A stretch of 64,000 bases of DNA from Prevotella sp. (lineage in GTDB: Bacteria; Bacteroidota; Bacteroidia; Bacteroidales; Bacteroidaceae), in NCBI GenBank assembly GCA_017428055.1, contig JAFRRN010000002.1, positions 9,803 through 73,802 on the forward strand, in the 5' to 3' direction. Position 1 is the first letter of the stretch. Every line of letters starts with the position of its first letter. Made by a program: the position numbers and the translations under genes. Below, piece after piece: positions 15,695 to 52,089 of this stretch. A model generated the notes under the pieces. It was not told where the DNA came from. It searched no databases and was given only the letters and a program-made list of their open reading frames with translations.

Positions 15695-15779
15695 CGAAGG
15701 CAATCGGTAAGATATGCCTCCCCTTCTCTTAACAAGGAAATAATCTCGTTTTTCTTTTGGCGCTATTCCCTTTATTATG

Positions 15780-15787: not shown

Positions 15788-15814
15788 CGAAAGAAACGGA
15801 TTATTAACACTTTA

Positions 15815-16946: not shown

Positions 16947-16962
16947 TAAATATCATGAGAAA

Positions 16963-18724: not shown

Positions 18725-18827
18725 TGTTATGATGTTTCTTGTATCACGGGAACTATTTTTGCAAATACATAATAGGTGTATTATTACAATAGGCACAAGT
18801 TTGATAAAGGATATTATACATAAAGTC

Positions 18828-18990
18828 ATGAAAAGAGGTTTGTTTATATATATATATGTCCGTCAAGCATGTAACGAAAGATGAGTCCCAAGTTTCAGGC
18901 AAGAGGTATGACTTGTCCGGGCGGAGGATAGGAAGTGCGAGGAAAGGGCAGGTCATGATAAGCGACGGAAAAAAGGTGGTCTCCCCTTGA
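18828..18990 (+). pseudogene. Collapsed T9SS cargo gene: start codon region plus out-of-frame CTD tail
   Basis: -7 box tatttttg at 18754-18761. ATG 18828 gives MKRGLFIYIY..., followed by a (TA)6 run at 18845-18856. The +1 frame then reads ...KRYDLSGRRIGSARKGQVMISDGKKVVSP-stop, a typical short T9SS CTD end. Confidence 0.55.
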
Positions 18991-22700: not shown

Positions 22701-22954
22701 CCTCTGGTTCTCTCGACCAATTCTCCAGTTTGCTGGGCTTCCAAAAGGCATCATTCATCAAGGTTCGTAACATCTCTTTGGGTTACAACTTCCCGAAGAA
22801 TATGATTTATCGTACTGGTTTGACACACTTGAAGGCATACGCCCAAGTGGTTAATCCGTTCAGCTTGAAACAGTCGATCAATGGTTATGACCTTGACACC
22901 GGCAAGACCATTTTCAACCGCAGTTTCGTCTTTGGTCTGGAAATTGGATTCTAA
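19772..22954 (+). CDS. SusC/RagA-family TonB-dependent outer membrane transporter
   Basis: Carboxypeptidase-regulatory-like N-domain GTVSGKVVDATGEPVIGASVMVKGTSTGAVTDIDGNFSI. Plug region DDVVVVGYGVQKKSDVTGA...GAAGVDIT. ~1060 aa, terminal ...FVFGLEIGF, immediately followed by a SusD-like gene. Confidence 0.95.
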   Translation: MMKDIGKMCAVNRGAGVRRFLLLLLLAVCSTYGWAQGTVSGKVVDATGEPVIGASVMVKGTSTGAVTDIDGNFSIPNAPKNGNLEISYIGFKTQTIPVGGKSSINVTLQEDRQMLDDVVVVGYGVQKKSDVTGAMASVSTEELNARPVNNALEALQGKAAGVDITTNERPGQLGSILIRGQRSIGASNAPLYVVDGVPLMSASAIETLNPRDIETIDILKDASATAIYGSRGANGVVLVTTKQGQTGKFSIDYTGTLTVSNIVDRSPSMSAQDYINYRRWAAYNLDPSVYAHPDSPTYENDKVIFDSALDGQTSRDNVLKGWEGGSWDPSKVTNTDWTDYVTQTAVSHEHTLAVSGGSDMMNAYASFGYLSNKGTQKGQWYDRYTGKISVNIKPTKWFSIQASINGSWQEQDYGMSTLGGRSGSVPDAIYGTAKTIYNMAVPYDANGNVVINPGGETGIYTIMEEWNHSTQQSQTFRALGNFAATVDFGEIYSPLQGLRYKINFGPDYRNWREGVYIDGFSAHKINADGSEGMNYARLNNRRDFSWTLDNMIMFDRTFAEKHKVGVTLLQTASKWNTETSGMSAQNIAKDSYLWNAFNTVDVTNSDNKVSISSGLTERQLESYMVRLNYGFNERYLLTVSGRWDGASQLAEGHKWDFFPSAALAWRIGEEDFIKNINWISNLKLRLGVGVTGNSAVDPYSTKGDITSIYLPFNGMENVLGYTTNEPYYTANQLTMANPELGWEKTTQWNFGIDYGFLNSRIFGSLDFYWSRTNDLIMATTIPTLTGFPSTMSNVGKSKNHGIEFTLNAIPVQTKDFQWLTDFNIAYQKDEIVELAYGKNDMPDNSLFIGEAISVFYGYDNEGIWQESDAAEMAKWNANGYNFTAGNVRPKDQNGDYKMDADDRVVLGRKNPSTTLGWNNTFSWKGLELGIQMFGRLGYMFSTGGEAMTAHANQREVDYWTPNNTGAEYQKPILGQATSGSLDQFSSLLGFQKASFIKVRNISLGYNFPKNMIYRTGLTHLKAYAQVVNPFSLKQSINGYDLDTGKTIFNRSFVFGLEIGF

Positions 22955-23071
22955 TGGTTTTAAACAGAGTATAATTATAAACAAGGTAAAAAGGTGAAAA
23001 AGTGAAAAGGTAAAAAGACAGACTCGTTGTTTTATATTTTTAAGCTTTTTAATTTTTAAACTTTATAAGAA

Positions 23072-25183
23072 ATGAGTAAGATTATGAAAATAAAGAAATA
23101 TATGATCGGTGGTCTTCTTGCCACAACCATGCTGGCTGGAATGACTTCTTGCTCGAGCGACTTCCTTGACGAGGAACTGACCACCAAATACTCCACGCAG
23201 TATTTCGAGACCTCCGAGGGGCTTGAGGCCTTGGCGGTGTCGCTCTATGGAAATATCCGTTGGCACTTCGGCTACGAGTGGGCATACGGCATCACCCTCT
23301 ATGGCACGGACGAGTTTACGAACGCCAACGACCTGACCAGTGAGTGCTGGAACACTTACGACAACCGCTTTGGCCCTGTCGCCTGTACTCCCGCCACGGG
23401 TGCCGCCAACAAGAACTGCCCCGCCCCCGAGGCTCTTTGGGACCAGCTCTATTATGGCATCGCTTCTTGCAACACCATCATCGCCAATGCGGACAAGATT
23501 TCAGACGAGAAGGTACGTAACCGTTGCCTGGCTCATGCCTACTTCCTGCGCGGATATAACTTCTATCGCCTGACGGCACAATATGGTCGTCCTGTTCTTC
23601 AGACATCTCCAGCTCAGGGCGTAGTGCGTAACTTTACCCAAGCTACGGAGGAAGAAGCATGGGAGCAGACCATCAGCGACCTGCGCCAAGCCTACAACCT
23701 CTTTGAGGGCGAGGTGTTCACTTACGGCAAGGGTATCACGTGGACCAAGGCTACCGCCGCCCACTTCCTGGCCAAGGCTCTTTTGTTCCGTGCATCGGAG
23801 CGTTGTGATGCTTTTAACAGCGGTACGAAAGAGGCAGACTTGCGCGAGGCTATCGAGGCTTGTAACTATGTTATCCAGGCACGCAGCTTGGAAGCCAACT
23901 ACAGCGACTTGTATGCTAACTTCACGGGTATCGACTGTGCCATTGAGGAGTCCAACGAGGTGCTGATGGCTGCTGGCTATAACAACTCCTCGGCAACAAA
24001 GGGGCGTTTCGGCAATCGTACTTATAACTACTTCTGTCCGCAGTTCTCCAACTTTTCCGGCGGTTGGGTGAAACGTGGCGTGTGGATTGGTGACATGGAC
24101 TTCCAGCGTTGCCGCCCCACGGAATACACATACTCCGTGTATGACCATGTGAACGATGCCCGCCTATGGAAGACCTTTAAGACCGTCTTTGGCATCAATG
24201 CCATTCCTAAGGACGGCGAAGGCAAGGGCGTGGCTGTTGGTGACCCAGGTATCGTGATGATCCTGAACACCAAGGATGACCACACATACGATGGATATAC
24301 CTTTGGTGCTTTCGTCCAAGGCCCCACCTTTACAGATGATGCTGGTCGTCTGCCAGAGTGGGATGTTAATGCCCGTCAAACTGCCACAAGCGGTACACTG
24401 ACTTCCAAGGTGGGGCAGTGGGTACCCAATGCCTCCATTCTCTACCAGAACGGTCAGTATGTGGCTCCCAACTTCAAGAGCCAGCCCATCTGTAACTTCT
24501 TTGCCGGCATCAACAAGACTGCCGACGGCACACGTACCGCAGAGAAGGGTGATGCCCAACGCGACGTAACGATGGCTCGCGTGGGTGAGACATATTTGGT
24601 TCGCGCAGAGTGCTATGTCCGTCTGGGCGACTACGAGTCTGCCAAGAGGGACATCAACGTAATCCGCGCCCGCGCCCAGTGGAAGAATGGCGAGAACCGC
24701 TCGTTCTACACCGATGGCTCGCAAGCCTTTGCTAATAATTCCCTCAATACGGGAACCGCCGCTGACAATTATGTGAACTCCAACCTGTGGATGAACACCT
24801 ATTATCTGTCAAATCCCACGCAGCCAGTGACAACCGCAGCATCCACCTTGACCAATTGGGATTGGGACAACCTACCCGCAGAGGATGAGGCTATCCTCGC
24901 CAAATTAGGTGTAAGTGGAAAGCAGCAACGTGCCATCCAGTTCATCCTGAATGAGCGTACACGTGAGTTGATTGGCGAATGGCAACGCTGGGAAACCTTG
25001 TCGCGTACCAAGACATTGGTGGCTCGTGCCAAGGCATTCAACCCGGAGGCCGCTGCCAACGTGCAGGAGCGTCACATCTATCGTCCCATTCCACAGACCT
25101 TCATTGACGGCTTGAAGAACGAGGACGGCTCAGACCTGACCGACGAGCAGAAAGCCGCTTGGCAGAATCCTGGGTATAATTAA
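23072..25183 (+). CDS. SusD/RagB-family nutrient-binding outer membrane lipoprotein (long, 703 aa)
   Basis: Lipobox LAGMTSCSSDFLDE. SusD-type signatures AYFLRGYNFYRL and LNERTRELIGEWQRWETLSRT. Positioned directly downstream of SusC. Confidence 0.9.
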   Translation: MSKIMKIKKYMIGGLLATTMLAGMTSCSSDFLDEELTTKYSTQYFETSEGLEALAVSLYGNIRWHFGYEWAYGITLYGTDEFTNANDLTSECWNTYDNRFGPVACTPATGAANKNCPAPEALWDQLYYGIASCNTIIANADKISDEKVRNRCLAHAYFLRGYNFYRLTAQYGRPVLQTSPAQGVVRNFTQATEEEAWEQTISDLRQAYNLFEGEVFTYGKGITWTKATAAHFLAKALLFRASERCDAFNSGTKEADLREAIEACNYVIQARSLEANYSDLYANFTGIDCAIEESNEVLMAAGYNNSSATKGRFGNRTYNYFCPQFSNFSGGWVKRGVWIGDMDFQRCRPTEYTYSVYDHVNDARLWKTFKTVFGINAIPKDGEGKGVAVGDPGIVMILNTKDDHTYDGYTFGAFVQGPTFTDDAGRLPEWDVNARQTATSGTLTSKVGQWVPNASILYQNGQYVAPNFKSQPICNFFAGINKTADGTRTAEKGDAQRDVTMARVGETYLVRAECYVRLGDYESAKRDINVIRARAQWKNGENRSFYTDGSQAFANNSLNTGTAADNYVNSNLWMNTYYLSNPTQPVTTAASTLTNWDWDNLPAEDEAILAKLGVSGKQQRAIQFILNERTRELIGEWQRWETLSRTKTLVARAKAFNPEAAANVQERHIYRPIPQTFIDGLKNEDGSDLTDEQKAAWQNPGYN

Positions 25184-30477: not shown

Positions 30478-31281
30478 TTATTTTTCGAGGATGAGGTTAA
30501 TAAGCGCAGTGACATCCGTGATGTTGATGTCGTCGTTATTATCAAGATCGCCCAATAATTTGGCGAAGGGGTCTGGCGTTGTACCCAAGATATAGCTTAT
30601 CATTGCCACAACGTCTTGGATGTTCACTACGCCATCGATGTTCACATCACCGGGAATGTATTCAGCTATATGTTTGAATTTCTCCCAATATTGGGCATTG
30701 GAGTATGCTGTTATCTTTCCTTTGGGTACATAAAGATAAGCATTATAGCAACCATCAAAAGTAGACTCACCGATAGAGAGAGGTGAAGCGATGTCTACCT
30801 TGACAGACTCCAGCCCGCTACAAAGATTGAAGGCATATGTGTCAATATCGGTGATAGAACTGGGAATGCTGACGAAAGTCAACAGGTTGCATTCGGCAAA
30901 GGCATGGTTGGCAATGCCTGTCACCTTATATGTTACGCCGTCTGTTCCCTTAACGGTGGATGGAATTGTTATCATTCCCGCTGTTGTTTTTGAGATAGCG
31001 GTTACAAAAGTGCCTTCCACGACGTAGTCATTGATATTGGGGACGGCGGGCGAGGCAACGTCTGCCTCGTAGTAAAAATTATCGTAGCCAATCATCACTT
31101 CCTTATTGGAGGCATTTGTCACCGTGAAAATGGCATCGATGGTGGAACTGCCATTCTCAATTTTGGCAGTGAAGAAATCATAGTCAGACAACACATTCGT
31201 TGCATTTCCATTTGCAAAAAGCGTTGTTGCACTCATCATAGCGATAATGAGAAACATATATTCCCGTACCTTTTGAATCAT
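30478..31281 (-). CDS. BspA-type leucine-rich repeat protein with C-terminal dockerin
   Basis: Signal peptide. IPSTVKGTDGVTYKVTGIANHAFAECNLLTFVSIPSSITDIDTYAFNLCSGLESVKV is an LRR_5/BspA-type repeat. C-terminus GDVNIDGVVNIQDVVAMISYILG...GDLDNNDDINITDVTALINLILEK is a duplicated dockerin segment. Confidence 0.85.
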   Translation of the reverse strand: MIQKVREYMFLIIAMMSATTLFANGNATNVLSDYDFFTAKIENGSSTIDAIFTVTNASNKEVMIGYDNFYYEADVASPAVPNINDYVVEGTFVTAISKTTAGMITIPSTVKGTDGVTYKVTGIANHAFAECNLLTFVSIPSSITDIDTYAFNLCSGLESVKVDIASPLSIGESTFDGCYNAYLYVPKGKITAYSNAQYWEKFKHIAEYIPGDVNIDGVVNIQDVVAMISYILGTTPDPFAKLLGDLDNNDDINITDVTALINLILEK

Positions 31282-37511: not shown

Positions 37512-38717
37512 TTATTTTTTAACAACTTTCTTACCATTCACAATATAAACGCCACGCTGCAGACGGTCGGCATTCTTGCCTACATTCATGCCGCTAACAG
37601 AGTAGATGTCGTCATTTCCAGCCTCAACCTTTGTGCTCACACCCTCGATGGATGTAGGAGTTCCACCAATGCTGAAGGAAATCTTTGCACCGGCATTTTC
37701 CACGCTTGACAAGACGTCAAACAACTCGAAGTATGCGCGGAAAGCTTTCATCTTTGTCTTTCCTGTGGAATACCAGAACTTGTTGTTTGCCAAGAACAAT
37801 CCCAAGTCGGGAACAACTGTATTAGCAGCATAAGTACCGTACATATAACTTCTAATACGAGAAGAATGTCTTACTTCTGTACATGGCTCTTCATCTGCTG
37901 CAATATTAACCCTTTCAACGATAAACGGATAGGTAGCGGCCGTGGTCTTTATGATATAAGGATGGTTAGCCTCAATAGCTGTTACAGGATCGAAGGAGAC
38001 ATTAATGACTGAAATATCACCATTTTCGTTCTCACCTGTTTCCCAATCAGCAAAGTCACCAAGCTCAACACCGTCACCGAAAGCAGCCTTCACTTGCTCC
38101 TCTGTCATATCAAATGGCAGGCAGATAGTACTCCATTCGCCATCCGTAAAGGCACGGTATACGCGAACATCAACATCGTTAGCATCTTCAGGAGCGGCTT
38201 CCTCTGTATCATAAAGGTCAACATACCCTGCATTCTCATCAATAATGATTTTGAAATCCACATTAGGAAGGTCGAACTGGGTACCGTCGTACTCCGGGAA
38301 GATCAACTCGTAAGCGCTGGCATCAAGTTCAGTACCAGGAGTCAAAGAAGCATCAGCATAGATGGTAAATGATACCAATACCCCCTCATGGTCTGTAATA
38401 GGCTCATTACCTGTACCGTTACCAAAAGAGAATGTAGCAAAGCGATAATGGCTATTACCCAAATCATTGCTACCCACAATGAAAGTGCTGGGGGTAGTAG
38501 GACCGCTTACGGCATTCGCAACATCTGCAGTAATGCCTTCTGGGAATTGCAAATCCAATTGATAAGCGCAAATCCTCTCGCTATCAAAGTGGTACATCAA
38601 GACGACATCAGCGCGTCCACCGGGACGAACCCTCACGTCGTCAATCGTCACATAGTTGTCAGCAGAGGCATTGAGCGCCAATGCGACCAAAGAGAAAAAC
38701 AATAATACTTTTTTCAT
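37512..38717 (-). CDS. Cohesin-like module protein with T9SS CTD
   Basis: Signal MKKVLLFFSLVALALNASA. N-terminal ~145 aa VTIDDVRVRPGGRADVVLMYHFDSERICAYQLDLQFPEGI...GVLVSFTIYADASLTPGTELD...NVDFKIII resembles cohesin jelly-roll modules. The middle domain (EWSTICLPFDM...NHPYIIK...FRAYFE) is shared with the C10 peptidase tail. C-terminus IYSVSGMNVGKNADRLQRGVYIVNGKKVVKK. Confidence 0.8.
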   Translation of the reverse strand: MKKVLLFFSLVALALNASADNYVTIDDVRVRPGGRADVVLMYHFDSERICAYQLDLQFPEGITADVANAVSGPTTPSTFIVGSNDLGNSHYRFATFSFGNGTGNEPITDHEGVLVSFTIYADASLTPGTELDASAYELIFPEYDGTQFDLPNVDFKIIIDENAGYVDLYDTEEAAPEDANDVDVRVYRAFTDGEWSTICLPFDMTEEQVKAAFGDGVELGDFADWETGENENGDISVINVSFDPVTAIEANHPYIIKTTAATYPFIVERVNIAADEEPCTEVRHSSRIRSYMYGTYAANTVVPDLGLFLANNKFWYSTGKTKMKAFRAYFELFDVLSSVENAGAKISFSIGGTPTSIEGVSTKVEAGNDDIYSVSGMNVGKNADRLQRGVYIVNGKKVVKK

Positions 38718-38916: not shown

Positions 38917-41778
38917 TTATTTGTTGACATATTTTTTCCCGTCTTTAATGTAGATTCCCTTGGCGGGAGTTGTCACCTGTTGTCCTTGGAGGTTGTATGT
39001 CTTCCCGTTGCCTGGATGTGCTGAGCCATCGGCAGATGGAGTGTCAATACCTAAGGCGAGTTGGTTGAAATCAAAAACGCGCGTCTCCATGGTATAGAGT
39101 GCCGAGACATCCTCGTATGAGAGAATGCGGTCATAGATCATGAGGTCATCGACGCAGATGTCTGCCGACCCTATCTTTGTGTCATATCCGAAATAGAAAT
39201 AGCGGCAGTTAGGGATATGGTCTAATATAAGGTTGAAGTCGCACTTCGACTTCGAGCTGACCGTCACGCCATCCAACTCTCCCGTGTAAGACATAGATGT
39301 CTTATTCGACCTATTGACATACAGCTTGATGCCATCGGCTCGCGAGATGGTCACCACGACATGGTTCCATGCCCCCACGGGGATTTGCGACGACAATTTG
39401 CGACTCTCTGGGTTGTTAATGTCAAACCAATTACCCGCATTGTCGGCATATCCGAAATACGAGTTGCCCGTCATGAAGAACCGTTTGACGGGATTATAGT
39501 TATAGAAACTGAAAATGTCATTGACAAGGTCGTCGGTATTGCGCTTGAGCCAGAACGACAACGTGATGCCATCCCCTATCGAGCCTTGGTAGAATGGGTT
39601 GGCAACCTGCACGTAGCTGCTCTTGGCATAAGTTCCCTCATACTGGTGAACGAATTGCCCTGTACGTTCATGGTCGGAGAGCAATACGGGTTTCGTCCCC
39701 CCGCTTTTCGATAAGAGGGTGGCACGTTGGTTGGTGTTATAGCTATTGGTCAACGGCTGTTCGTCGAAAGCATAATAAGCCACCATCCCTGTGGCATAGT
39801 CGCCTGTGGGTACGGTCTCTGCCTTGGCTCTCACGGTATATGTCTGCGACCAATAATAGTTGCCGCAAGTCAGTCTTCCTGTGAGTGTCACCATCGAGTC
39901 TGTTTCTAATCCCGCGGGATTATACTTCCCCTCCTCGTCGATGATGTCTGGTGCGCTTGAAGTCCAAGCCAAATCCACATTGTCTTGTAGGTTGAAACCA
40001 TACAGATTCAAATTACCACTGACCGTCCGATAGTTGCTTACGGGGATGGTTGAATTGTTGAGCGTGTAAGCGATGGCATAATCGTCGCGCATCTTATAAG
40101 CCCACATGTTCAGGCCTGTCGTGGCACTGACGGCGGTGATGGCGACCGCCTTGATGGTGGTGAGTTCCAGTTGTTGCTCCACTACCACGCCCTTATACGT
40201 GTTGCCATTGAAGGAAAGGGTGATGTACGACGTGCCACCCGTGGTGTTCCACCGCCCCGTATACTGCCCCGTAATGGTGCCATCGGCATTGAGACGGATG
40301 GTGACGGGAGTCACTTGTTCCATGTTCTCCCTGTCAATGCCATACTTGTGAACCATCAATTGGTATGTTCCCAAGATGTCGCTGTCATCGAAGCGCTGGC
40401 GCGAGGCGACGGAATCATTGTTCCATTTCTCCCCATTATACTCGAAGGGCGCGGCGACAAGCCAGCCATTCTCGTTGAGGAACAACTGGTGGACACGCAC
40501 CTGGTGTCCCTCGCCCGCATTGTGGAAACGGGTGTGATACACAAGATAAGCGTTACCATCCTCCGCGTCAATGACGGAGTTATGGCCCTGTGCCGTCTCG
40601 CCATAGTCGCCCACGGCGACATACCCCCACTCTCCGTATGCTCCAAGCAATTTCTCGCCACGGGTGTCAGAGTTCAAACCATAGTTCAGGGCATAGCGTG
40701 TGTAAATGGCACTCGTTCCCTTCGTGTCGGTATATGGCCCATCGGGGTTGCTGCTACGGAACACGCGCATCTCATAACCGCCATTGGCTTGCAACTCGCC
40801 GTAGGTGACAAAGAGGTAATAGTGGTTACCTATATGCTCAATATACGATGCTTCGCCCGATACATAATATCCTCCTGCAATCTTCTTCCCAAAATAGGGG
40901 TCGGATGTCACGCCCTGTCCCTTGCTGGAATAGTCGCTGCTATATGTGACATCATAGTCACGCAACCCCGTCTCCTCATTGAGTTGCAACATCCAGATGC
41001 CACCCGACCATGAGCCGTATGACATCCAAAGGTTGCCCTCCTCGTCATAGAACACGCAGGGGTCAATGGCATGAGGCCAATAACTGCCCCATTTGTTGCC
41101 TTGGTTATAACGGTCTGGCAAGGCTGACAAAGTGCCAAGAGCCAGTTGCAAGTCGGTCTTTTGGTAGGAGATGTTGGCATTGGTGGTGTTGATGAATCCC
41201 GTTATCACCACAGGGCCTTGGTAGACGTATGGCCCATTGATGGCGTCTGCCGTGAGCAGGATGATGCTGGAGTTCCACGAGGAGCCGTTGATGCTGAGGT
41301 AAAGGCACCATTTCTGCATCTTTTCATTATAAATAATGTCGGGAGCCCACATGTTTCCGTCGATGTTATAGTCACCTCCGTATGCGGCAGACCACCCGTA
41401 TGCGTTGAAGTCAGTGAATGCCACCTCCTTGCCATTGATGACGATGGTTTTCACTTGCGGCGTGACAAACGCCTCGGTATTGCCCACCGAACCGACGGTA
41501 CCATTGGCATTGGGAACGCCCCAAGTGGTGCTGACATTCGTCCAGCTCTGCATATTCCGCGAGCGAGCCTGTGCACGATGCGAGCCAAAGATATAATAAT
41601 ATTGGTCTGTGGGATTATAGACGACCGACGGGTCATGCACACTCACACGCGACATCGTAATATTCCGATACATCGACTTGGCTTCGGCGGAGGTCACCTC
41701 CACTTGCGCCCATGCAAGAGATGCCCAGGAAGCCAAGAGCGTGGAAACTGCAAACGTAACTAATCTATTCATTTTCAT
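38917..41778 (-). CDS. GH43-family (endo-arabinanase-like) glycoside hydrolase with LamG-like domain and T9SS CTD
   Basis: Signal peptide. VHDPSVVYNPTDQYYYIFGSH, MWAPDIIYNEKMQKWCLYLS, IDPCVFYDEEGNLWMSYGSWSGGIWMLQL and EASYIEHIGNHYYLFVTYG are GH43 propeller motifs. LamG-like ITLSFWLKRN...WNHVVVTISRADGIKLYVN...DDLMIYDRIL. C-terminus TYNLQGQQVTTPAKGIYIKDGKKYVNK. Confidence 0.9.
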   Translation of the reverse strand: MKMNRLVTFAVSTLLASWASLAWAQVEVTSAEAKSMYRNITMSRVSVHDPSVVYNPTDQYYYIFGSHRAQARSRNMQSWTNVSTTWGVPNANGTVGSVGNTEAFVTPQVKTIVINGKEVAFTDFNAYGWSAAYGGDYNIDGNMWAPDIIYNEKMQKWCLYLSINGSSWNSSIILLTADAINGPYVYQGPVVITGFINTTNANISYQKTDLQLALGTLSALPDRYNQGNKWGSYWPHAIDPCVFYDEEGNLWMSYGSWSGGIWMLQLNEETGLRDYDVTYSSDYSSKGQGVTSDPYFGKKIAGGYYVSGEASYIEHIGNHYYLFVTYGELQANGGYEMRVFRSSNPDGPYTDTKGTSAIYTRYALNYGLNSDTRGEKLLGAYGEWGYVAVGDYGETAQGHNSVIDAEDGNAYLVYHTRFHNAGEGHQVRVHQLFLNENGWLVAAPFEYNGEKWNNDSVASRQRFDDSDILGTYQLMVHKYGIDRENMEQVTPVTIRLNADGTITGQYTGRWNTTGGTSYITLSFNGNTYKGVVVEQQLELTTIKAVAITAVSATTGLNMWAYKMRDDYAIAYTLNNSTIPVSNYRTVSGNLNLYGFNLQDNVDLAWTSSAPDIIDEEGKYNPAGLETDSMVTLTGRLTCGNYYWSQTYTVRAKAETVPTGDYATGMVAYYAFDEQPLTNSYNTNQRATLLSKSGGTKPVLLSDHERTGQFVHQYEGTYAKSSYVQVANPFYQGSIGDGITLSFWLKRNTDDLVNDIFSFYNYNPVKRFFMTGNSYFGYADNAGNWFDINNPESRKLSSQIPVGAWNHVVVTISRADGIKLYVNRSNKTSMSYTGELDGVTVSSKSKCDFNLILDHIPNCRYFYFGYDTKIGSADICVDDLMIYDRILSYEDVSALYTMETRVFDFNQLALGIDTPSADGSAHPGNGKTYNLQGQQVTTPAKGIYIKDGKKYVNK

Positions 41779-43330: not shown

Positions 43331-43488
43331 TGCCGGGCCGATAGGTATCATCCAGGCATTTCAGGGGCGGCAAATATCGTGTCTTTGGGTGGATTCTAAT
43401 GCGAGCGTGAGCCACGTTCACTATCCGTGAATGCCGCCAATTAATGATTTTTTACTATACTTGTAGCCTATGATTCAACAAAAACCAT

Positions 43489-43496
43489 TAATTTTG
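43489..43496 (+). promoter_or_regulatory. Bacteroidota -7 promoter box (TAnnTTTG)
   Basis: taattttg, 34 nt upstream of ATG 43530 and downstream of the ORF-track start at 43470. Confidence 0.45.
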
Positions 43497-43529
43497 CAGC
43501 GATTATTAGCTTTTTTTGTTGTAGACAAG

Positions 43530-46500
43530 ATGAAGAGATGTATTATTTTGTTCGTGACGGCGATGGCATTCATCACCGTACACGCAGGGCCTGTGGATAA
43601 GCAAAAGGCATTTCAGGAGGCAGTGAAGTTTGTCCAAGGAGTCAACCCAACGATTCATTTTACCGAAAACCAAGTGCGCAAGATAGCCGGGAAATCAGCC
43701 GAAACAGCAGATACAGTCCAACCCTATTACGTTTTCAATGCAGATGAGGACAAAGGGTTTGTCATCGTTTCGGGCGATGACCGCACGGAACCCATCATAG
43801 GATATGCCGAGGAAGGGTCGTTTGATGCCGACAACATTCCAGGGGGATTGCAATTCCTGCTTGACTGCTTTGCCGAGGAGACACAATCAATGGAGTCGGA
43901 AGAGACGGCATCCAATACCGCGAGGAAGGTTGTAGCCCTCCCCCGTCGTACAGTGACGCCATTCAACCCGCGAAGATGGTACCAAAGTGGGCCATACAAC
44001 AACTTCTGTCCCAAGGACGGGGACAAGCGTTGCTCCACGGGTTGCCTTGCCACCGCCGTGGCGATTACCATCGGTTGCTTCAATTGGCCCGCGCAGACCA
44101 CGGCCATCCCTGCGTACACCACATCCACCAGGGGCTTCAAGATGCCTGAGTTGCCCCCGCTGACCATCGACTGGGAGCACATGCTTGACAGGTATGATGG
44201 CACCTATACCATGGAGGAGGCAAACGCCATTGCCAACTTCATGCTATACGTGGCACAAGGCATCAAGTCAGACTTCACGAAAGATGCCGTCAACGCATAC
44301 ATCTCGGCAGCCCTCAATGCCTACGTCAACTACTTCGACTTCGATCCGGGGATACGCCACATCAGTGCCGACGACTACGACACGGTAAACGACTTCATCG
44401 ACATCGTCTATGGCGAGATCTCACAGGGAAGGCCCGTCATGCTGGACGGCTTCTCCCTTGGCACACCCACGTCAAGCGCAGCCGGACATGCTTTCATCTG
44501 CGACGGCTACGAGCAAAACGACATGTTCCATATCGACTGGGGATGGACGGGATATTGCAATGGCTACTTCCGGCTGACGGTGCTTAACCCCTACAAGACC
44601 ACCCGCAACCGTAACTACACCAATAAACTCGGTGCGACCGTTGGCATCCAGCCCAATGGATGGAAGAGCAACGATGAGTTCTCATACGAGAAAGAGGACA
44701 TGGCATTGCAGCTCCTCAGCATCACACCAAGCGGTGACAATATCCGCGTGGCGTTGCAGAACGCCTACAACGAGAAGCTGGACTTCGACAACGCACTGGC
44801 TCTTTACGACGACAGCCTACAGTTCGTGCAGTTCATCTCATCGACAGACACGACCACCTTTAACCGTAACGGGTGGAATTACAAGACCTATTCCTCCATC
44901 TCATTTGAAGGTGTTGCCGATGGCACCTATAAAGTCATTCCCATGAGCCGCGTCAACGGACAAGAAGAATGGCACTTCGACCGATGCCTGGGCACTTATG
45001 CCTATTTGGAAGCCAACGTGGCGGGCGGGCAAGCCACTTACAAGGCGGTGGAAACCATCGTGGTGAACTCGTTTGAGGTGTTGGAGTCTGACCGCGGGAA
45101 CGGCATCGGTGCACCACAGACCGCTCGCCTCAATATCACCAACAATTCGTTTGACAAATTCGACAAGCACTATTATCTTGTCGCCAATAAGTCGCTAAAC
45201 ATGATCAATGGCCTGAGAATCCCCATGAACTCCACCGTGGACATCGACTTTGAGTTTGTGCCATACGTCGCGGGCGAGTATAAACTGGAAATTTGCAAGG
45301 ACTCCAACGGCGACTTCCCCATTGCCACCACCATGACAACGGCAAGCGACAATATCCATTATGGCGACGAAAGCAACAGCTTTAGGATGATTAAAGCCAC
45401 CATCCTCAACGACAACACGGAGGATAACGACGGCACCATAGGGTATGTCTACACAGATAAATACAAGGCGACGGTCAGTTTGACCAATGCCGATACGGTA
45501 AACACGTTCAACGACTATGTGCGCTTCTCCCTCTCACTGAGCAAGTCCACCGTGTCGGCCTGGGAGTCAACGGAACTCGTCCATGTCAGGCTCGCCCCCG
45601 GGGAGACCAAGACATTCACTTTCGAGTCTACGGAGATGTCGAAGAACAACAAGGACTACACTTTCAGGGTCATGACAAAATGGTATTCTTACGCCTCGAT
45701 GGATAACGTCGTGGACTGGTCGAAGCCCGGCACATACCAAATCACATACACGCCATACACCATAGCGCGCGCCCAGGGCTATCGCTATTGGACCGCTGGC
45801 GGCATGGCACACGGCCATGCGGCGGTGGCAGCCCCGTCGTTTGTGACGCCTGAGGATGTGGTTGCCATCAGCTTCGACACGCCCGACAGGGAATTATGGC
45901 CATTGGCATTCACCCCCAACAGCAACCCCAACACCCTCTATTATTTCAACGGAGAGAGCGACTACCCCAGCTTGGGGAATGTCATCAACGCGGGGAAAGC
46001 CAAGCGCATCAGCTTGACAGACGGCTTCCCCACCTTCGTTCCCGAATCGTTCATGGCAGACAGCGTGACCTACACCCGCACTTTCCGTCGGGGGTGCGAC
46101 GGGTTGGAAAACAAGTACAACTGGTCAACCATCATCCTGCCCTTTGACGTGCAGAGGGTTTCCATCCTCCCCGACAGCATTGATGTTGACTGGTTCCACA
46201 ATGCGGACGAGCTGGGGAAGGACTTCTGGCTATGCAGTTACCACGGGAAGGAGAACTACACGCTCCTCTTTGACTATTCTGATGAGTTCCTGGCAAACAC
46301 GCCTTATATCATCACCGTCTCCGATGAGAGAATTGATGGTCCCGGACTCGTGGGTAAGCCTATCGCGTTTAGTGCCACAGATGCGGAAGTCAAGGCAGGA
46401 ACGCTATTCATCGACACGAATGACTTTGACGTCGAAGGCAACTATTCGGGTGGAACAGTCACGGGCAGCCACCTCTACGTGATGGACGAGGAGGACTACG

Positions 46501-46772
46501 AGAAAGACTTTACCTATGTAGGCGATACGGTCACGGCAGTCCCGTTCCGCGCATACATCACTTCGGAGGTTTCCCCGAATGACAACAACAAGCAGCTTTT
46601 CATCAAGCTGCTGCATGAGAACCCGGAGATGACAGGGATTCAGCATGTGACGGAAATCCCATCCCCATCAAATAACGATGTATATGACATGATGGGAAGG
46701 AAAATGATTGGTAATTACATGCTCAATAAAGGTATATTTATCATCAATAAAAAGAAATACGTCGTTAAATAA
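43530..46772 (+). CDS. C10 (streptopain/SpeB-like) cysteine peptidase with Ig-like repeats, shared C-terminal domain and T9SS CTD
   Basis: Signal MKRCIILFVTAMAFITVHAG. Propeptide-like PYYVFNADEDKGFVIVSGDDRTEPIIGY. Catalytic Cys region RCSTGCLATAVAITIG and His region GHAFICDGYEQNDMFHIDWGWTGYCNGYF. C-terminus VYDMMGRKMIGNYMLNKGIFIINKKKYVVK. Confidence 0.9.
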   Translation: MKRCIILFVTAMAFITVHAGPVDKQKAFQEAVKFVQGVNPTIHFTENQVRKIAGKSAETADTVQPYYVFNADEDKGFVIVSGDDRTEPIIGYAEEGSFDADNIPGGLQFLLDCFAEETQSMESEETASNTARKVVALPRRTVTPFNPRRWYQSGPYNNFCPKDGDKRCSTGCLATAVAITIGCFNWPAQTTAIPAYTTSTRGFKMPELPPLTIDWEHMLDRYDGTYTMEEANAIANFMLYVAQGIKSDFTKDAVNAYISAALNAYVNYFDFDPGIRHISADDYDTVNDFIDIVYGEISQGRPVMLDGFSLGTPTSSAAGHAFICDGYEQNDMFHIDWGWTGYCNGYFRLTVLNPYKTTRNRNYTNKLGATVGIQPNGWKSNDEFSYEKEDMALQLLSITPSGDNIRVALQNAYNEKLDFDNALALYDDSLQFVQFISSTDTTTFNRNGWNYKTYSSISFEGVADGTYKVIPMSRVNGQEEWHFDRCLGTYAYLEANVAGGQATYKAVETIVVNSFEVLESDRGNGIGAPQTARLNITNNSFDKFDKHYYLVANKSLNMINGLRIPMNSTVDIDFEFVPYVAGEYKLEICKDSNGDFPIATTMTTASDNIHYGDESNSFRMIKATILNDNTEDNDGTIGYVYTDKYKATVSLTNADTVNTFNDYVRFSLSLSKSTVSAWESTELVHVRLAPGETKTFTFESTEMSKNNKDYTFRVMTKWYSYASMDNVVDWSKPGTYQITYTPYTIARAQGYRYWTAGGMAHGHAAVAAPSFVTPEDVVAISFDTPDRELWPLAFTPNSNPNTLYYFNGESDYPSLGNVINAGKAKRISLTDGFPTFVPESFMADSVTYTRTFRRGCDGLENKYNWSTIILPFDVQRVSILPDSIDVDWFHNADELGKDFWLCSYHGKENYTLLFDYSDEFLANTPYIITVSDERIDGPGLVGKPIAFSATDAEVKAGTLFIDTNDFDVEGNYSGGTVTGSHLYVMDEEDYEKDFTYVGDTVTAVPFRAYITSEVSPNDNNKQLFIKLLHENPEMTGIQHVTEIPSPSNNDVYDMMGRKMIGNYMLNKGIFIINKKKYVVK

Positions 46773-46783
46773 CAACGTTTTCC

Positions 46784-47764
46784 ATGCCTATCATTTCTAT
46801 TGTCATACCCGTTTATAATGTAGAAAAGTTATTGAGAAAATGTCTTGACAGCATATTGTCTCAAACTTTTACGGATTATGAATTGATTATCGTTGATGAT
46901 GGAAGTACAGACCAATCAGGTAAGATTTGTGACGAATATAAAGAAAAAGACCAACGAATTGTTAGCGTAATCCATCAAGAAAATCAAGGGTCAAGTGCTG
47001 CAAGAAACGCTGGATTGTCTTTAGCTAAAGGTAAATATTTGTCTTTTATTGATGCTGACGACTGGGTTGAGCCACAGTATCTTCAATCCATGTTAGATTG
47101 CGCTGAAAGGGAACATGCGGATTTGGTCATTTCATCCTTTATCAGGGAAAGCACTGACTATCCCGCTCTATACAATCGGAACGAGCCAAAAGACCTTAGT
47201 AAGAGAGCTGTCGTTTTAGGCTACTTTACCAATCTACACGCTGGATTGTGGAACAAGCTGGTCTTGCGTGAATTATTCGTCAAAAATGGAATTGCCTTCC
47301 CTCAGTATAATTACTATGAGGACATGGTGGTTTCCACAAAGATTACCATTGCCGCATCAAATATTGTCTACAGTGATACCCCGTTGTACCATTATGTGGT
47401 ACATGACTCGTCCATGACCCAATTACAAAACGCCGAGAAGCGACTTTCTTTATTTACTGAATGCTTAAACAACATCATGGGCATTCAGGAAATACCTTTC
47501 GTCAAATCTGACAAAGCCCTGTTAAGGGCATCGATGAATATAGTGAATTTTAATAAGAAGAAAATAATTAAGAATGTCTCTGATGAGCGAGTCATCCGTA
47601 GTGTCTTGGGGCAGTGCCGTGAGTCAATCACATTTAGTAATATTAGAAGCATCTCGGACTTATTGCTATATATCGCATCAAGGTTTACCATTTACAAACC
47701 CCTGAAATACTATTTAAAGAATCCGATTACACCTAAACTTTTTAATTATATAAAGCATACATAA
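46784..47764 (+). CDS. GT2-family glycosyltransferase
   Basis: ISIVIPVYNVEKLLRKCLDSILSQTFTDYELIIVDDGSTDQS...FIDADDW are GT-A fold motifs. 11-nt gap after the C10 peptidase gene. AT-rich. Confidence 0.9.
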   Translation: MPIISIVIPVYNVEKLLRKCLDSILSQTFTDYELIIVDDGSTDQSGKICDEYKEKDQRIVSVIHQENQGSSAARNAGLSLAKGKYLSFIDADDWVEPQYLQSMLDCAEREHADLVISSFIRESTDYPALYNRNEPKDLSKRAVVLGYFTNLHAGLWNKLVLRELFVKNGIAFPQYNYYEDMVVSTKITIAASNIVYSDTPLYHYVVHDSSMTQLQNAEKRLSLFTECLNNIMGIQEIPFVKSDKALLRASMNIVNFNKKKIIKNVSDERVIRSVLGQCRESITFSNIRSISDLLLYIASRFTIYKPLKYYLKNPITPKLFNYIKHT

Positions 47765-48688
47765 CAATATTCTCCTTTTCCAACTTGCCAAGGGACAATA
47801 CTGCCGACAGAATATGGGAACGGCATCCGTTGACAATCCTGCGAGGAGTTGGCAAAATTTCACCTTGTCACGTTTCCACATTTTCCTCATTATTGGAATG
47901 AGTGGGTACGGCTCATCCTCAATTAAATAATGGTGGGAACAAGCGAGATTAAAACATCTGATGCCAATTTCTGCACGTAAGACATGTTCGTCCATGTCCT
48001 CGCAGAACTTGCTTGTCAATGACCCCTCCTTTTCACATAATACATATAGGACACGGTCGTCTATATGAAGACTTTCTGCCAAACAACCTGATGATACCGA
48101 GAAGAAAAAGTCATTTGACCAACGTGTTTCATCGAACCTAAAACGATGGTTCTCGACAAATGACCTCTTGATCATCTTGGCAAAGGGAAATGGATAATAT
48201 GTGCGCGCAAAAACTTCCTTTTGAGGGTGATGATGCAATTGAACCCTGTAGTTTTGGTCACGATTTGACGTAATGGAGGGATTGTCAGACATCACGCTCT
48301 TATAATCAAAAAAGACAATATCGTCTTGCGCGTCAACGAAAGAATCTATCATGGACTCAAAGCCATCCACGAAAAAATCATCCGCATCTGCAAACAGTAG
48401 CCATTTTCCCTTGGCGTGGGCAAGCCCAACATTACGTGCCCTTCCCGCGCTTCCGCCCTTTTCCGTAGAATAGAATTCCAGGAAGGGACGAGACAACAAA
48501 GGATATTTTTCCAAGTATGTATCCGCATCTGGACTACAGTCATCTATTACAATCACTTGTATATCTTCCCGTATAGGAATGGAATTTAAACACCTCATCA
48601 AAAGAAGAGGGGTGTTATAATGGGGGATAATTACTGAAAAAGTGAAAGGATGTGCCATACTTCCAGAAGAGAAGGAATAAGAAGTCAA
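47714..48688 (-). CDS. GT2-family glycosyltransferase
   Basis: FSVIIPHYNTPLLLMRCLNSIPIREDIQVIVIDDCSPD...GSAGRARNVGLAHAKGKWLLFADADDFF. The start overlaps the stop of the upstream CotH-like gene by 4 nt. Confidence 0.85.
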   Translation of the reverse strand: MTSYSFSSGSMAHPFTFSVIIPHYNTPLLLMRCLNSIPIREDIQVIVIDDCSPDADTYLEKYPLLSRPFLEFYSTEKGGSAGRARNVGLAHAKGKWLLFADADDFFVDGFESMIDSFVDAQDDIVFFDYKSVMSDNPSITSNRDQNYRVQLHHHPQKEVFARTYYPFPFAKMIKRSFVENHRFRFDETRWSNDFFFSVSSGCLAESLHIDDRVLYVLCEKEGSLTSKFCEDMDEHVLRAEIGIRCFNLACSHHYLIEDEPYPLIPIMRKMWKRDKVKFCQLLAGLSTDAVPIFCRQYCPLASWKRRILLCMLYIIKKFRCNRIL

Positions 48689-51600
48689 TTGTTAGCAGAC
48701 AATATCATGCTGTTTATCATGATGACATCCGTGATGTTGATAAAGCCATCACAATTCACGTCTGCGACTTTCATGTTCAACAAATTGGTCTTGGATTGTA
48801 AGATGCAATTGAGAAGACAAACGCCATCGGTGATGTTGACAATCCCGTCTTCGTTGACATCCCCTATCAAATATTGGTTGACATCATAGCTTGACAATTG
48901 GTTTGTCTTGCCGATGGTGGGAACATCCATCAAATAGATGTTTTTCCCTCCATCAGGGTATCTGCCAACAGTGGAGTTTCCATCATGTACACAGTACTGC
49001 AAAGTATCAGACCAACTCCTGTCTGCTGCCGTGAGAGAGATAATGCCTCCGTCGCCATCTATCTTGAAAGAAGCATGAAGACCTTGGTCTGTTGTTGCCA
49101 GTTTGTCACACCACACGATGAGGTGGCCATGGGCGGGTATCACGGTGACAGCCATTGTCCCTTCCTTGGAAATCTTATACTTCGTGGGAACGCTTATGTT
49201 GTCAGAGAGATACATTCCTTCTACATCGATGGGACTGTTGGTCGAATTATATAATTCCACCCAGTCATTCTTCTTGTAATACTCGTTGACATAAATGGAA
49301 TTGTTTCCGCTTACTTCGTTTATCATGACGGGCTTGGTGGATGACATGGCCATTTCGGCATTTGACAACTCCTCATAGCAAGCGGTGAGGTGGCAGTTGG
49401 TGTCAGGCAAGGTAATCTCTGTTTCCGTGGAATAGTAGACGGCAGACTCATCGTCCAAAGTGCCAATCAGTCGTGCATCCCAATAGATATCGCTCGATGA
49501 AGCACTTGAATTATGCACCTCAACGGCGATGACATTGCTACCTTTGTGGAAAAGGGAGCTTGGCAACACAATGACAGTGTTGTCGGGATTGTCGTGGGCA
49601 TAGGATTTTGAATAAGTGCTATACGCCACAGTTCCTGTTGTCATGAGATAACGCCCGGCTTCCGTGCCGTTGACATAGACGATGAATCCATCATCCGCCT
49701 TGCAATCCAAGACAAAAAGGGAATGGTCGTCGGGCTCTTTGTCTATCTGAAAGGACTTCCTGAAATAATAAGTCGGTATTTTGCTGCTGGCATTACTGCC
49801 GTATGAAATGGTGGTGCCAATACTACTGAACCCATAGCCCAATGGTGTCTTCCCCGTACTCCAGCTACTGCTGTTGTACGAAGAGGAAGTCCAACTCTTT
49901 CCATCTAATGAGCCTTTGTCGTAATATGACCAAGAGTCGCCAAAGCTGAAGATGACACGTTCTTTTGCCATGCCATCCTTCCAACCCACGAACTTATATC
50001 CTGCGGGACAAACGGCTGAAACCGTGACAGAAGGGAAAAGGCGGCCATTGAATTGGCCTGTTGGGATCTTCTGTTCATTCAACATGATGTCCGCTCCTTG
50101 GATATTGCTTCCTAAAACCGCGTGGTAAGAGGCTGTGTTTGTAAGACCCATAGGGGAGAAACTTTTCAGATAATATGTCATCAAGGGCATTCGGTTAGCA
50201 AAGGCCTCTTTCATCTCTTCCGCAGTCTTGTCGGGTGACTTCCCTTCGAGACTTAACGCAGGTCTTGTGATGGCGGTGATGGAATCAATGATGGCGTTGC
50301 ATCGCTCTGGGAGAAACACGCTACCTCCCATGATGCAATAGGTATCGATAAATCTTTTCCTAAACTCATCATTGTTGAGGAGGTTGCTGAAGATGGAAAT
50401 AAACTTCTGCTCAACACCACTTATCACTTGCCTGCTCATCATTTTGTTAAAGACATCATCGATACTGAAAGCCAAGTCTACATCATAGGAAATGATGCGG
50501 AACTTTCCATTTTGGCTGTGCCTAAAACCTTTCAAGTTGTTCAAAGGCCAGTCGTTAACGCCTAAATACAGTTCCTCAGCCATGTAGTTGGCATATTCGT
50601 CAACATCCAAGATATTCTTGATTTCCTTATAGGTGTCAGGGTCTGCGGCATCAGAGGACAATGAATACAACTGCTCAAACTTGTCTGGTGTGCCACATTG
50701 CTGGAGGTATGTGGAACTCCCTATCTCAAACTGGTCAATCTCATCATCATCCCATCCATAATTCGCGTAAACATAATGTTTGTTGTTGGGCTCGCGGATG
50801 TTAAGCATCCCAATATATTGCCCATTGATAAACTCATGGCAGGGCTGGGCACTTTGGCAATCGATGTCTATGCCCGAAGACATGACCATGGTATGTATGG
50901 CCATGTCTTTCAGCCTGCAATTCACGTCATTTCCTCCGTTCCGTACTTGTAAGGTGCGATTGCGGATATATGGTTTTGAGGAAAAGAAAGGATATGGCAA
51001 ATTCTTGTTGCCTCCCAATTCCTTGCTCCCTTTCAGCTTCAACGACCGTGGTGTCCAAGCCCTGCTGTAGCCTCCTGCAATTTTCAAGTTGACATCCTGG
51101 TTTAACACCATGTCGTTATCGATGATGTAAGAGAAATTGCCAGGGCGTTCCCAATCCATGTTCCAATTGCAGGGAGTGGTCTGTCCATTGCCAGCCACAC
51201 CATTTACGCCTTTCACATAAATTCCAATCGAGTCATCATAAAGAAAAACCGGGTCAACAACGATGGAGACAATAGGAAGCGTATAGTCCTTGTCGTTGTA
51301 AAGGTATGAGCGGGTTATAGTCCTGGAAGCTAAGTAGTTGTCCGAAAAGAGGCGAAATCGTAGAACGGTGGACTTGGTTAAAGAGAATTTTCCACTTGCC
51401 GCGGTCTTGCCATTTGTCAACGTGGGTAGTGTCCCGTCTGTAGTGTAGCGCAAAACCGTGCCGGAGGGGATGCCAACGTTGATGTATAGTGTACCCGTGA
51501 ACAATTGTGACGGTTGGTCTACAATAGGCGAGGGAAGTTGGCTGTTTGCATAGGTTGCCAACGAATTGGCCTTTCCGGGTGTTGGGGTAGAAGTGTAATT

Positions 51601-52080
51601 CCATACGCTCCCTCCGTCTGTTGTTCTTGCATAACTGGCTCTTTCTATACCCTCTGGGTATGTTTGGCTGGCAATCAATTGTCCATTTGCATCACTAATA
51701 TATACCGTTCCACCATCAACATCAAGTTTGAATGGTACACTATTGGAGCTCAACATGTCTTCATCAAACCAAACCAGTAAATACCCATGAGCGGGGATTT
51801 TTCCCATGGATGACGGGGCTTGCCAAAGTTTCAAGTTCTGGATGTCGTTACTGAAAAATAAGCCGCCAACATCTATGGCACTACTTGTTGGATTATATAA
51901 TTCTATCCATCCGTCAAAGTTCCAAGAAGGACTTATCCACTCATCAACATTAGACACCATCACTTCATTGATGACAATATCTGAGGACGTACTATTTTCA
52001 TTGGCATGGCAATCCATTGCCCTCAATAGTAAAAAGAAGAGATATACGAAAACCGTATATTTAATAAACTTATCATTCAT
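48685..52080 (-). CDS. CotH-like kinase-fold protein with two lamin-tail domains and C-terminal dockerin
   Basis: LTD motifs VINEVMVSNVDEWISP...GWIELYNPTSSAIDVGGLFFSND and MINEVSGNNSIYVNEYYKKNDWVELYNSTNSPIDVEGMYLSDN. CotH core NLKIAGGYSRAWTPRSLKLKGSKELGG...LQVRNGGND...EFINGQYIGMLNIREP. C-terminus GDVNEDGIVNITDGVCLLNCIL...ADVNCDGFINITDVIMINSMILSANN. Confidence 0.88.
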   Translation of the reverse strand: MNDKFIKYTVFVYLFFLLLRAMDCHANENSTSSDIVINEVMVSNVDEWISPSWNFDGWIELYNPTSSAIDVGGLFFSNDIQNLKLWQAPSSMGKIPAHGYLLVWFDEDMLSSNSVPFKLDVDGGTVYISDANGQLIASQTYPEGIERASYARTTDGGSVWNYTSTPTPGKANSLATYANSQLPSPIVDQPSQLFTGTLYINVGIPSGTVLRYTTDGTLPTLTNGKTAASGKFSLTKSTVLRFRLFSDNYLASRTITRSYLYNDKDYTLPIVSIVVDPVFLYDDSIGIYVKGVNGVAGNGQTTPCNWNMDWERPGNFSYIIDNDMVLNQDVNLKIAGGYSRAWTPRSLKLKGSKELGGNKNLPYPFFSSKPYIRNRTLQVRNGGNDVNCRLKDMAIHTMVMSSGIDIDCQSAQPCHEFINGQYIGMLNIREPNNKHYVYANYGWDDDEIDQFEIGSSTYLQQCGTPDKFEQLYSLSSDAADPDTYKEIKNILDVDEYANYMAEELYLGVNDWPLNNLKGFRHSQNGKFRIISYDVDLAFSIDDVFNKMMSRQVISGVEQKFISIFSNLLNNDEFRKRFIDTYCIMGGSVFLPERCNAIIDSITAITRPALSLEGKSPDKTAEEMKEAFANRMPLMTYYLKSFSPMGLTNTASYHAVLGSNIQGADIMLNEQKIPTGQFNGRLFPSVTVSAVCPAGYKFVGWKDGMAKERVIFSFGDSWSYYDKGSLDGKSWTSSSYNSSSWSTGKTPLGYGFSSIGTTISYGSNASSKIPTYYFRKSFQIDKEPDDHSLFVLDCKADDGFIVYVNGTEAGRYLMTTGTVAYSTYSKSYAHDNPDNTVIVLPSSLFHKGSNVIAVEVHNSSASSSDIYWDARLIGTLDDESAVYYSTETEITLPDTNCHLTACYEELSNAEMAMSSTKPVMINEVSGNNSIYVNEYYKKNDWVELYNSTNSPIDVEGMYLSDNISVPTKYKISKEGTMAVTVIPAHGHLIVWCDKLATTDQGLHASFKIDGDGGIISLTAADRSWSDTLQYCVHDGNSTVGRYPDGGKNIYLMDVPTIGKTNQLSSYDVNQYLIGDVNEDGIVNITDGVCLLNCILQSKTNLLNMKVADVNCDGFINITDVIMINSMILSANN

Positions 52081-52089
52081 ATAATATGA

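Follow-up and report, generated by a model that had tools for sequence, protein, structure and literature searches.

The protein encoded at positions 37512-38717 on the reverse strand of a 64,000-nucleotide stretch of Prevotella sp. DNA (assembly GCA_017428055.1, contig JAFRRN010000002.1, positions 9,803 to 73,802; hereafter the window) is probably the single-cohesin anchor of a cohesin-dockerin system native to rumen Prevotellaceae, a reading that combines sequence comparison with a predicted structure. Across the family of this protein, gene order, gene fusions and sequence co-variation together make a surface-anchoring cohesin-dockerin system well supported. The gene is an uninterrupted frame of 401 codons, and its product is identical (100%) to the homologue P0001, annotated as 'hypothetical protein' in a Prevotella sp. 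metagenome-assembled genome (MAG). The product consists of a signal peptide, a cohesin, a further domain that we call mid, and a tail resembling the C-terminal domains (CTDs) of proteins exported by the type IX secretion system (T9SS). An original prediction made for this stretch of DNA had described a signal peptide and an N-terminal module at residues ~20-165, both of which are found in the clean frame; its layout of a module followed by a CTD captured the two ends of the protein and overlooked the conserved domain of ~175 aa between them. By analogy with characterised systems, the best-supported reading is that the protein acts like an anchoring scaffoldin that lies outside the known anchor types, as a Gram-negative counterpart of ScaE or OlpA/C. 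The kind of system is known, whereas its phylum and its anchoring module are new.

The cohesin module of the anchor protein

The N-terminus of the anchor protein reads as a Sec type I signal peptide (aa 1-19; 38661-38717, reverse strand), MKKVLLFFSLVALALNASA followed by DN, with its cleavage site between ASA and DN and no lipobox. The cohesin module follows directly (aa ~20-165; 38223-38660, reverse strand). An AlphaFold2 model of the whole protein, based on an alignment of 68 homologues, had a pLDDT of 86.2 and a pTM of 0.70, with a helix at residues 2-14 within the signal peptide and with residues 21-160 mostly above 90. In this model the N-terminal module adopts the nine-stranded flattened beta-sandwich (jelly-roll) fold of cohesins, and when it was compared with the PDB using Foldseek the matches at ranks 1-38 were all cohesins (E 5e-9 to 4e-7), superposed over ~147 columns with root-mean-square deviations (rmsd) of 2.3-3.8 A. 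The best TM score, 0.84, was obtained with 5nrm_A, the ScaB cohesin of A. cellulolyticus (E 1.3e-8, rmsd 2.3 A, 147 columns). The other matches include 1aoh, 2ccl and ScaE 2zf9, and among the proteins represented are CipA, OlpA and OlpC of C. thermocellum and ScaE, ScaB and ScaC of R. flavefaciens, as well as non-cellulosomal cohesins of C. perfringens and A. fulgidus. Sequence identity to the solved cohesins is 11-22%.

At the level of sequence, the connection to known cohesins is a transitive one. The cohesins of this family fall into two separable subfamilies, ~45-60 bits apart: type A (profile cohA), which stands before a dockerin, and type B (profile cohB), which stands before the mid domain. 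The window module belongs to the type B anchor subfamily, scoring 89.6 bits against cohB, and also matches cohA at E 2.8e-16 (47.6 bits). The cohA profile in turn matches cohesin 5 of R. flavefaciens ScaB (5n5p) in the PDB at E 5.8e-11 and reaches E values below 1e-3 with six other cohesins, and 27 of 42 type-A modules match PF00963, the Pfam Cohesin model, when scanned alone; the window module is thereby linked through cohA both to the cohesins of the PDB and to PF00963. The profile of the anchor family reached ScaE 2zf9 in the PDB directly, at E 0.011. PF00963 itself detects five of the 68 anchor-family members, the window protein not being one of these, and NCBIfam models and a PDB sequence search returned nothing useful for the window protein.

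Predicted fold and transitive profiles together thus make it well supported that the N-terminal module is a genuine but highly divergent cohesin. This is what the original prediction had proposed, and the structure prediction that it had suggested as a check yielded a confident model with the cohesin fold. We also considered the window protein as a deletion derivative carrying an 'enzyme-binding' type-A cohesin, and ruled this out, as its cohesin scores as type B. Neither a second cohesin nor a cohesin-dockerin adaptor was found in the 64 kb window using family-specific hidden Markov models (HMMs).

Dockerin genes in the family and in the window

The anchor protein has at least 1816 homologues, and at least 539 loci were found in species-representative genomes (one genome per species). 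Locus statistics were gathered from the 80 best of these at least 539 relatives, with HMMs derived from family members and from dockerins. All 80 come from ruminant MAGs assigned to Prevotella, Prevotellaceae, Bacteroidaceae or Bacteroidales, and several genomes hold multiple copies of the anchor. A survey of relatives for co-occurrence of the two module types, as suggested in the original prediction, found the two together at most loci. A dockerin open reading frame (ORF) is present at 67 of the 80 loci, and for 56 of the 71 short anchors with a usable upstream region the immediately upstream gene on the same strand ends in a dockerin. In 44 of those 56 genes a cohesin directly precedes the dockerin, giving the arrangement X-cohesin-dockerin, and at five further loci the genes are fused (X-coh-doc-coh-mid-tail). 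Set against a background of 22 dockerins in 1698 other ORFs, dockerins are enriched ~60-fold at the upstream position.

Pfam confirmed Dockerin_1 in all ten upstream proteins tested; BspA-type leucine-rich repeats (LRRs) were present in eight of the ten and immunoglobulin (Ig)-like domains in the others. The usual order within a partner is BspA-type LRR, cohesin, dockerin, and an LRR protein of the window (30478-31281) is of the same class. Upstream dockerins and downstream anchor cohesins also vary together. Over 39 two-gene loci, the two sets of pairwise distances are correlated (Mantel r 0.36, p <= 3e-4), and remain so when the mid domain is controlled for (r 0.35, p <= 3e-4); for the anchor cohesin and its own mid domain the correlation is 0.11 (p 0.09). 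This co-variation of sequences is consistent with an interacting pair that co-evolves or is exchanged as a cassette.

The C-termini of PL11 lyases and CotH-like proteins are also interchangeable. For the PL11 rhamnogalacturonan lyase encoded in the window (2128-5697), the closest 120 homologues comprise 116 proteins of ~710 aa that end in the short tail and four that end in a dockerin; none has neither. In the four dockerin-type lyases, which are that of the window and three near relatives, an extension of ~480 aa is followed by the dockerin. CotH-like proteins have three kinds of end: a dockerin (48685-52080), a canonical-type CTD (52090-56457), and a mid domain and tail in cis, as in L068:6704-10702, where an LTD and CotH protein is joined to mid-tail. 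The first two are tandem paralogues in the window with differing C-termini. From these exchanges, a dockerin together with a cohesin-mid-tail protein in trans looks equivalent to a tail, or a mid domain and tail, in cis.

The four dockerin tails that had been described in the window all score above the PF00404 cut-off of 22.9 bits, and their duplicated segments, each a DxNxDGxxNITD calcium loop plus helix, are visible by eye. These dockerins form the C-termini of secreted proteins that otherwise lack relationship to one another, namely of an unknown protein truncated N-terminally by the window boundary (ORF 2-1969; dockerin at 1793-1966, forward strand, 51.3 bits), of the PL11 lyase (5527-5694, forward strand, 47.6 bits; RGL11_C 412 bits), of the small BspA-type LRR protein (30487-30654, reverse strand, 31.3 bits; LRR_5 43 bits) and of the LTD and CotH protein (48700-48864, reverse strand, 36.6 bits). 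The first two proteins share a duplicated C-terminal module, a region of ~260 aa plus the dockerin: their last ~790 nt (1183-1969 and 4908-5697) are 79% identical and their dockerins 98% identical. The dockerin remnant noted at 8114-8164 (forward strand) was likewise recovered. Its translation, VNITDIVTLTNLILSD and a stop, corresponds to the last dockerin helix, 33 nt of it are 100% identical to 1918-1950 at the end of the first dockerin, and it lies 25 nt past an S8 peptidase gene (5821-8088) that itself ends in a canonical-type CTD. The position of this relic after a CTD-ending gene suggests recombinational swapping of the 3'-end modules, dockerin and CTD.

The window thus holds one cohesin and four dockerins, the latter of three sequence types with a mutual identity of 39-48%, which is no higher than their identity to dockerins elsewhere and so does not indicate shared specificity. 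The proposal that an anchored cohesin docks dockerin-tailed proteins at the cell surface is backed, by synteny, fusions and co-variation, as far as the system is concerned, but none of the four window dockerins is indicated as the ligand of the window cohesin. The idea of a pectin-oriented analogue of a cellulosome is not supported. There is one cohesin in the window, the PL11 lyase is the only carbohydrate-active enzyme (CAZyme) among the four dockerin proteins, and the dockerin partners of relatives are chiefly LRR and Ig-like proteins, mostly of the BspA-type LRR class.

The arrangement around the window anchor, which lacks a dockerin gene directly upstream, is a minority one, and is the same at the syntenic locus L001 (84% nt identity). 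At L002, where synteny is more distant, and in P0009, P0010 and P0023, a dockerin and a type-A cohesin are inserted between the cohesin and the mid domain of the anchor. L001 differs from the window by an indel and lacks the counterpart of 46640-52085, with two GT2 glycosyltransferase genes and the CotH-dockerin gene, so that dockerin content varies among close relatives.

C-terminal modules and a proposed route to the cell surface

The cohesin is followed in the anchor by the mid domain (aa ~170-345; 37683-38210, reverse strand), modelled as all-beta with one helix. Conservation in the family is highest in these ~175 aa, which contain most of the invariant columns in the alignment of 68 homologues and the motifs WSTICLPF, NHPYIIK, FWYS and AFRAYF. 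The domain was modelled confidently on its own alignment (pLDDT 85 to ~90); Pfam gave no match to it, and a fold search with a model of mid plus tail found no relative of it in the PDB (best E 0.15). It is always C-terminal, preceding a tail, and is present too on CotH and other large proteins. A profile of mid plus tail matched at least 1080 clusters (50% identity) at E <= 1e-30, always at the extreme C-terminus, and the best 150 of these matches are mostly anchors of ~400 aa together with some proteins of up to 2639 aa. A C10 peptidase of the window (43470-46772) has a weak mid-like domain ahead of its tail, and a 2115-aa Listeria-Bacteroides-repeat protein (L074:10057-16401) has three to four partial copies. 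The mid domain is thus a pre-tail module of wider distribution, which extends beyond cohesin anchors.

The tail (aa 346-401; 37515-37682, reverse strand), ...DDIYSVSGMNVGKNADRLQRGVYIVNGKKVVKK, comprises the last ~55 residues of the protein, …IYSVSGMNVG…RGVYIVNGKKVVKK. It is present on 126 of the 1895 C-termini examined, and a tail HMM finds it on five other ORFs of the window (38917-41778, 43470-46772, 14779-15588, 17936-18724 and the fragment 18832-18987). In a comparison of the anchor-family profile with the PDB, the C-terminal stretch of a rumen arabinanase chain, 4kca, was matched at E 5e-5. Three comparisons connect the tail with the CTDs of T9SS cargo. When an HMM was made from eight canonical-type CTDs alone, one of them passing TIGR04183, it retrieved nothing beyond its own members except 11 tail-type sequences (E 1.7e-4 to 0.015). 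Using hhalign, the tail aligns with canonical CTDs at 84% probability (P 7e-6), YdLqGrrV…KGIYIv lying opposite the canonical motifs with one hairpin deleted in between. In an iterative search from three canonical seeds, 124 of the 126 tails were recruited. We accordingly interpret the tail as homologous to the last strands of type-A CTDs of the T9SS and thus as a shortened relative of these, a view that is only partly supported; T9SS anchoring of the cohesin protein is plausible but unproven. A canonical CTD cargo gene is present in the window (11021-12280; TIGR04183 36.4 bits, cut-off 23), which suggests that the organism uses the T9SS.

We propose that the mid-tail module would deliver the anchor to the cell surface and fix it there, the likely route being type IX secretion, after which the tail would be cleaved off and the protein attached to the outer membrane. 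By calcium-dependent contact, its cohesin would then hold proteins that have a dockerin in place of a tail of their own. In the common two-gene version of the locus, the cargo would be a BspA-type LRR adhesin-like protein with its own type-A cohesin, which could take on further dockerin proteins. The window anchor stands alone, and its ligand might be found among the local dockerin proteins (one or several of the LRR, PL11 lyase, CotH-like and unknown proteins) or might be a cohesin-dockerin adaptor whose gene lies elsewhere in the genome. Overall, surface display would be modular and non-covalent, with one tail-bearing anchor able to serve many cargoes.

Several observations weigh against this reading. 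The gene upstream of the window anchor, where related loci have a dockerin-terminated partner, encodes a GH43 arabinanase with a short tail (38917-41778, reverse strand; Pfam GH43; tail HMM E 6e-10; syntenic in L001 and L002). The window dockerins are no closer to one another than to the dockerins of other genomes, and the co-variation of dockerin and cohesin across the family could stem partly from cassette-like recombination of adjacent DNA. The comparison of the N-terminal module with PF00963, which the original prediction had named as a check, gave no match even at E <= 10, the Pfam scan of the window protein returning two meaningless sub-threshold matches only. As for the tail, PF18962 and TIGR04183 are matched neither by the anchor nor by any of the 68 family members, the other tail-bearing proteins of the window likewise match no curated CTD model, and the hhalign link to canonical CTDs spans just 24 columns; the description of this region as a T9SS CTD is thus partly supported, by a relationship at the profile level, and fails for every curated CTD model. 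No T9SS core genes were seen within the 64 kb window, and its C25-like gene (12298-14628) scores 79 bits against PorU, where the cut-off is 420. Finally, the dockerin proteins of the window have type-I-like signal peptides with neither lipobox nor CTD, and no route across the outer membrane can be recognised in them.

The absence of a CTD from the dockerin-tailed proteins had already been pointed out for the window, and it extends to the family, in which 52 of 64 dockerin-terminated proteins have a type-I-like signal peptide alone, without CTD or lipobox. Export of these proteins as surface lipoproteins was ruled out, as none of the window dockerin proteins has a lipobox and there are only four heuristic matches among the 64 proteins family-wide. 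Two export options can be envisaged. Dockerin proteins may exit from the periplasm by a separate route and be docked once outside, or binding to the anchor may already take place in the periplasm, so that both travel out together. At L014, L024 and L072 there are proteins with both a dockerin and a tail, which makes docking outside the cell at least possible.

The second option leads to an alternative that we consider unlikely, in which the anchor is an export adaptor as well as a tether, its tail acting as a detachable CTD that carries a CTD-less dockerin protein, bound in the periplasm, through the T9SS translocon. Substrates of the T9SS can be folded and very large, and the proteins without CTD or lipobox include enzymes and adhesin-like proteins that are expected to act outside the cell. 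Close orthologues bear a tail in cis, and through the conserved operon and the fusions each CTD-less cargo is linked to a partner that has a tail. However, the dockerin proteins might exit via vesicles or lysis instead, those that combine dockerin and tail at L014, L024 and L072 would reach the surface on their own and so fit docking outside, and we found no precedent for such a mechanism in a literature search that largely excluded subscription journals. In its general form, the idea would be that rumen Prevotellaceae have split T9SS cargo in two, a passenger with a dockerin, be it an adhesin, a lyase, a CotH-like protein or a protease, and a small shared protein of cohesin, novel domain and minimal CTD, which would assemble in the periplasm and be exported and anchored as a unit; this too is doubtful. 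If it were true, such a piggyback type IX route would for the first time join a cohesin-dockerin system to a Gram-negative secretion machine.

Which dockerin the anchor binds is also subject to an alternative. It is possible, though we would not expect it, that the type-B cohesin binds only the dockerin of an X-CohA-Doc adaptor encoded elsewhere in the genome, and that the window dockerins use the type-A cohesin of that adaptor or another anchor paralogue. The type-B cohesins of relatives are indeed paired with the dockerin of an adjoining X-CohA-Doc gene, cohA and cohB are distinct subfamilies at ~45-60 bits, and several anchor paralogues occur per genome. The closest relatives (L002, P0009, P0010 and P0023) hold the Doc-CohA insert within the same protein, and the want of a common signature among the window dockerins agrees with such a two-tier arrangement. 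It is opposed by the anchor standing alone both in the window and in L001, which are of the same clade, with no adaptor gene in the 64 kb. Far less probable is that the cohesin-like module binds no dockerin at all, and that it serves a T9SS cargo protein as a structural beta-sandwich spacer or in binding glycans, the nearby dockerins being coincidental. Such a module could account for the failure of the window protein in Pfam Cohesin, its 11-22% identity to solved cohesins and the lack of a partner gene directly upstream here, but not readily for the ~60-fold enrichment of dockerins upstream across the family, for the fusions or for the co-variation of dockerin with cohesin. To our knowledge, all characterised cohesins, non-cellulosomal ones included, bind dockerins.

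Known systems and the dockerins of rumen Bacteroidota

Dockerins without a defined function, accompanied by few or no cohesins, have been reported repeatedly in genomes and polysaccharide utilisation loci (PULs) of rumen Prevotella and Bacteroides and, at the level of the phylum, from rumen Bacteroidetes (PMC7480376, PMC9763041, PMC10266427, PMC6487960, PMC6071333). Bins of this phylum with 11 dockerins and 0 cohesins have been described (PMC6071333), and its share of the rumen total was 8.8% for dockerins and 1.7% for cohesins (PMC6487960). A large family of cohesins located beside dockerin genes and largely missed by Pfam could explain these 'orphan' dockerins of rumen Prevotella. Pfam detects cohesins in five of 68 anchors, in 27 of 42 type-A modules scanned in isolation and in none of ten full-length upstream proteins, so that the numbers of cohesins published for rumen Bacteroidota are likely to be far too low. 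We found no prior description of the cohesin-mid-tail family in the literature, most subscription journals being beyond the reach of the search. If the proposed system is real, counts of "cellulosomal" components in rumen metagenomes need revision, and the BspA-like adhesins and some enzymes of the most abundant rumen genus would be displayed by a modular non-covalent system. It would also provide a natural Gram-negative cohesin-dockerin display scaffold for engineering, make the orphan-dockerin question directly testable using recombinant modules, and pose sharply the question of how CTD-less dockerin proteins transit the outer membrane.

Of the characterised anchors, ScaE of R. flavefaciens (type III cohesin, 2zf9) is the most similar in sequence profile, being the family's best direct match, with a Foldseek E of 8e-8. 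Like the anchor described here, it consists of a signal peptide, one cohesin and a C-terminal surface sorting signal, and both would be expected to bind dockerins carried by an adaptor scaffoldin and by adhesion proteins that are not enzymes. This is in contrast to the means of attachment, which in Gram-positive ScaE is an LPXTG sortase signal and in the Gram-negative anchor would be a truncated CTD-like tail, preceded by the ~175-aa extra domain; identity between the two is ~15%. OlpA and OlpC of C. thermocellum (type I; 3ul4, 4dh2), which are among the top fold matches, likewise tether individual dockerin enzymes through a single cohesin, but are attached to the Gram-positive cell wall by an SLH module and form part of a cellulose-degrading cellulosome. 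The anchor thus has neither of the SLH or LPXTG signals of anchoring scaffoldins, and in their place has the novel mid domain and the CTD-like tail. The upstream genes of relatives resemble the adaptor scaffoldins ScaA and ScaB of R. flavefaciens in having a C-terminal dockerin after a cohesin, and differ from them in the mostly BspA-type LRR region at the N-terminus and the usually single cohesin; no such gene is present in the window.

The tail has its closest parallels in T9SS type-A CTD cargo such as the gingipains and Tannerella forsythia BspA. Like these CTDs, it occupies the extreme C-terminus, contains YxxxGxxV, GxY and KxxxK-like motifs and is found again on numerous secreted hydrolases and proteases encoded in the same genome. 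Unlike them, it is ~50 aa long, lacks one hairpin and falls below curated thresholds. The LRR adhesin-like proteins considered here differ from T. forsythia BspA in ending in a cohesin and a dockerin, the CTD-like tail being on a separate protein. Non-cellulosomal pairs, from the glycosidase complexes of C. perfringens and from A. fulgidus (2w1n, 2jh2, 2xdh), are also among the top fold matches and are comparable in serving general protein assembly; they belong to other phyla, without an outer membrane or a link to the T9SS.

Three features of the surroundings may be added. The anchor gene is flanked by two GH43 genes, each with its own tail or CTD-like end. The region 11021-18987 is a cluster of secreted proteins, in which the canonical CTD cargo (11021-12280) has an endosialidase-chaperone domain, 12298-14628 is the C25-like peptidase, and 14779-15588, 17936-18724 and the fragment 18832-18987 bear the short tail. 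A SusC/SusD pair (19772-25183) sits between the dockerin genes, with no dockerin gene directly attached to it.

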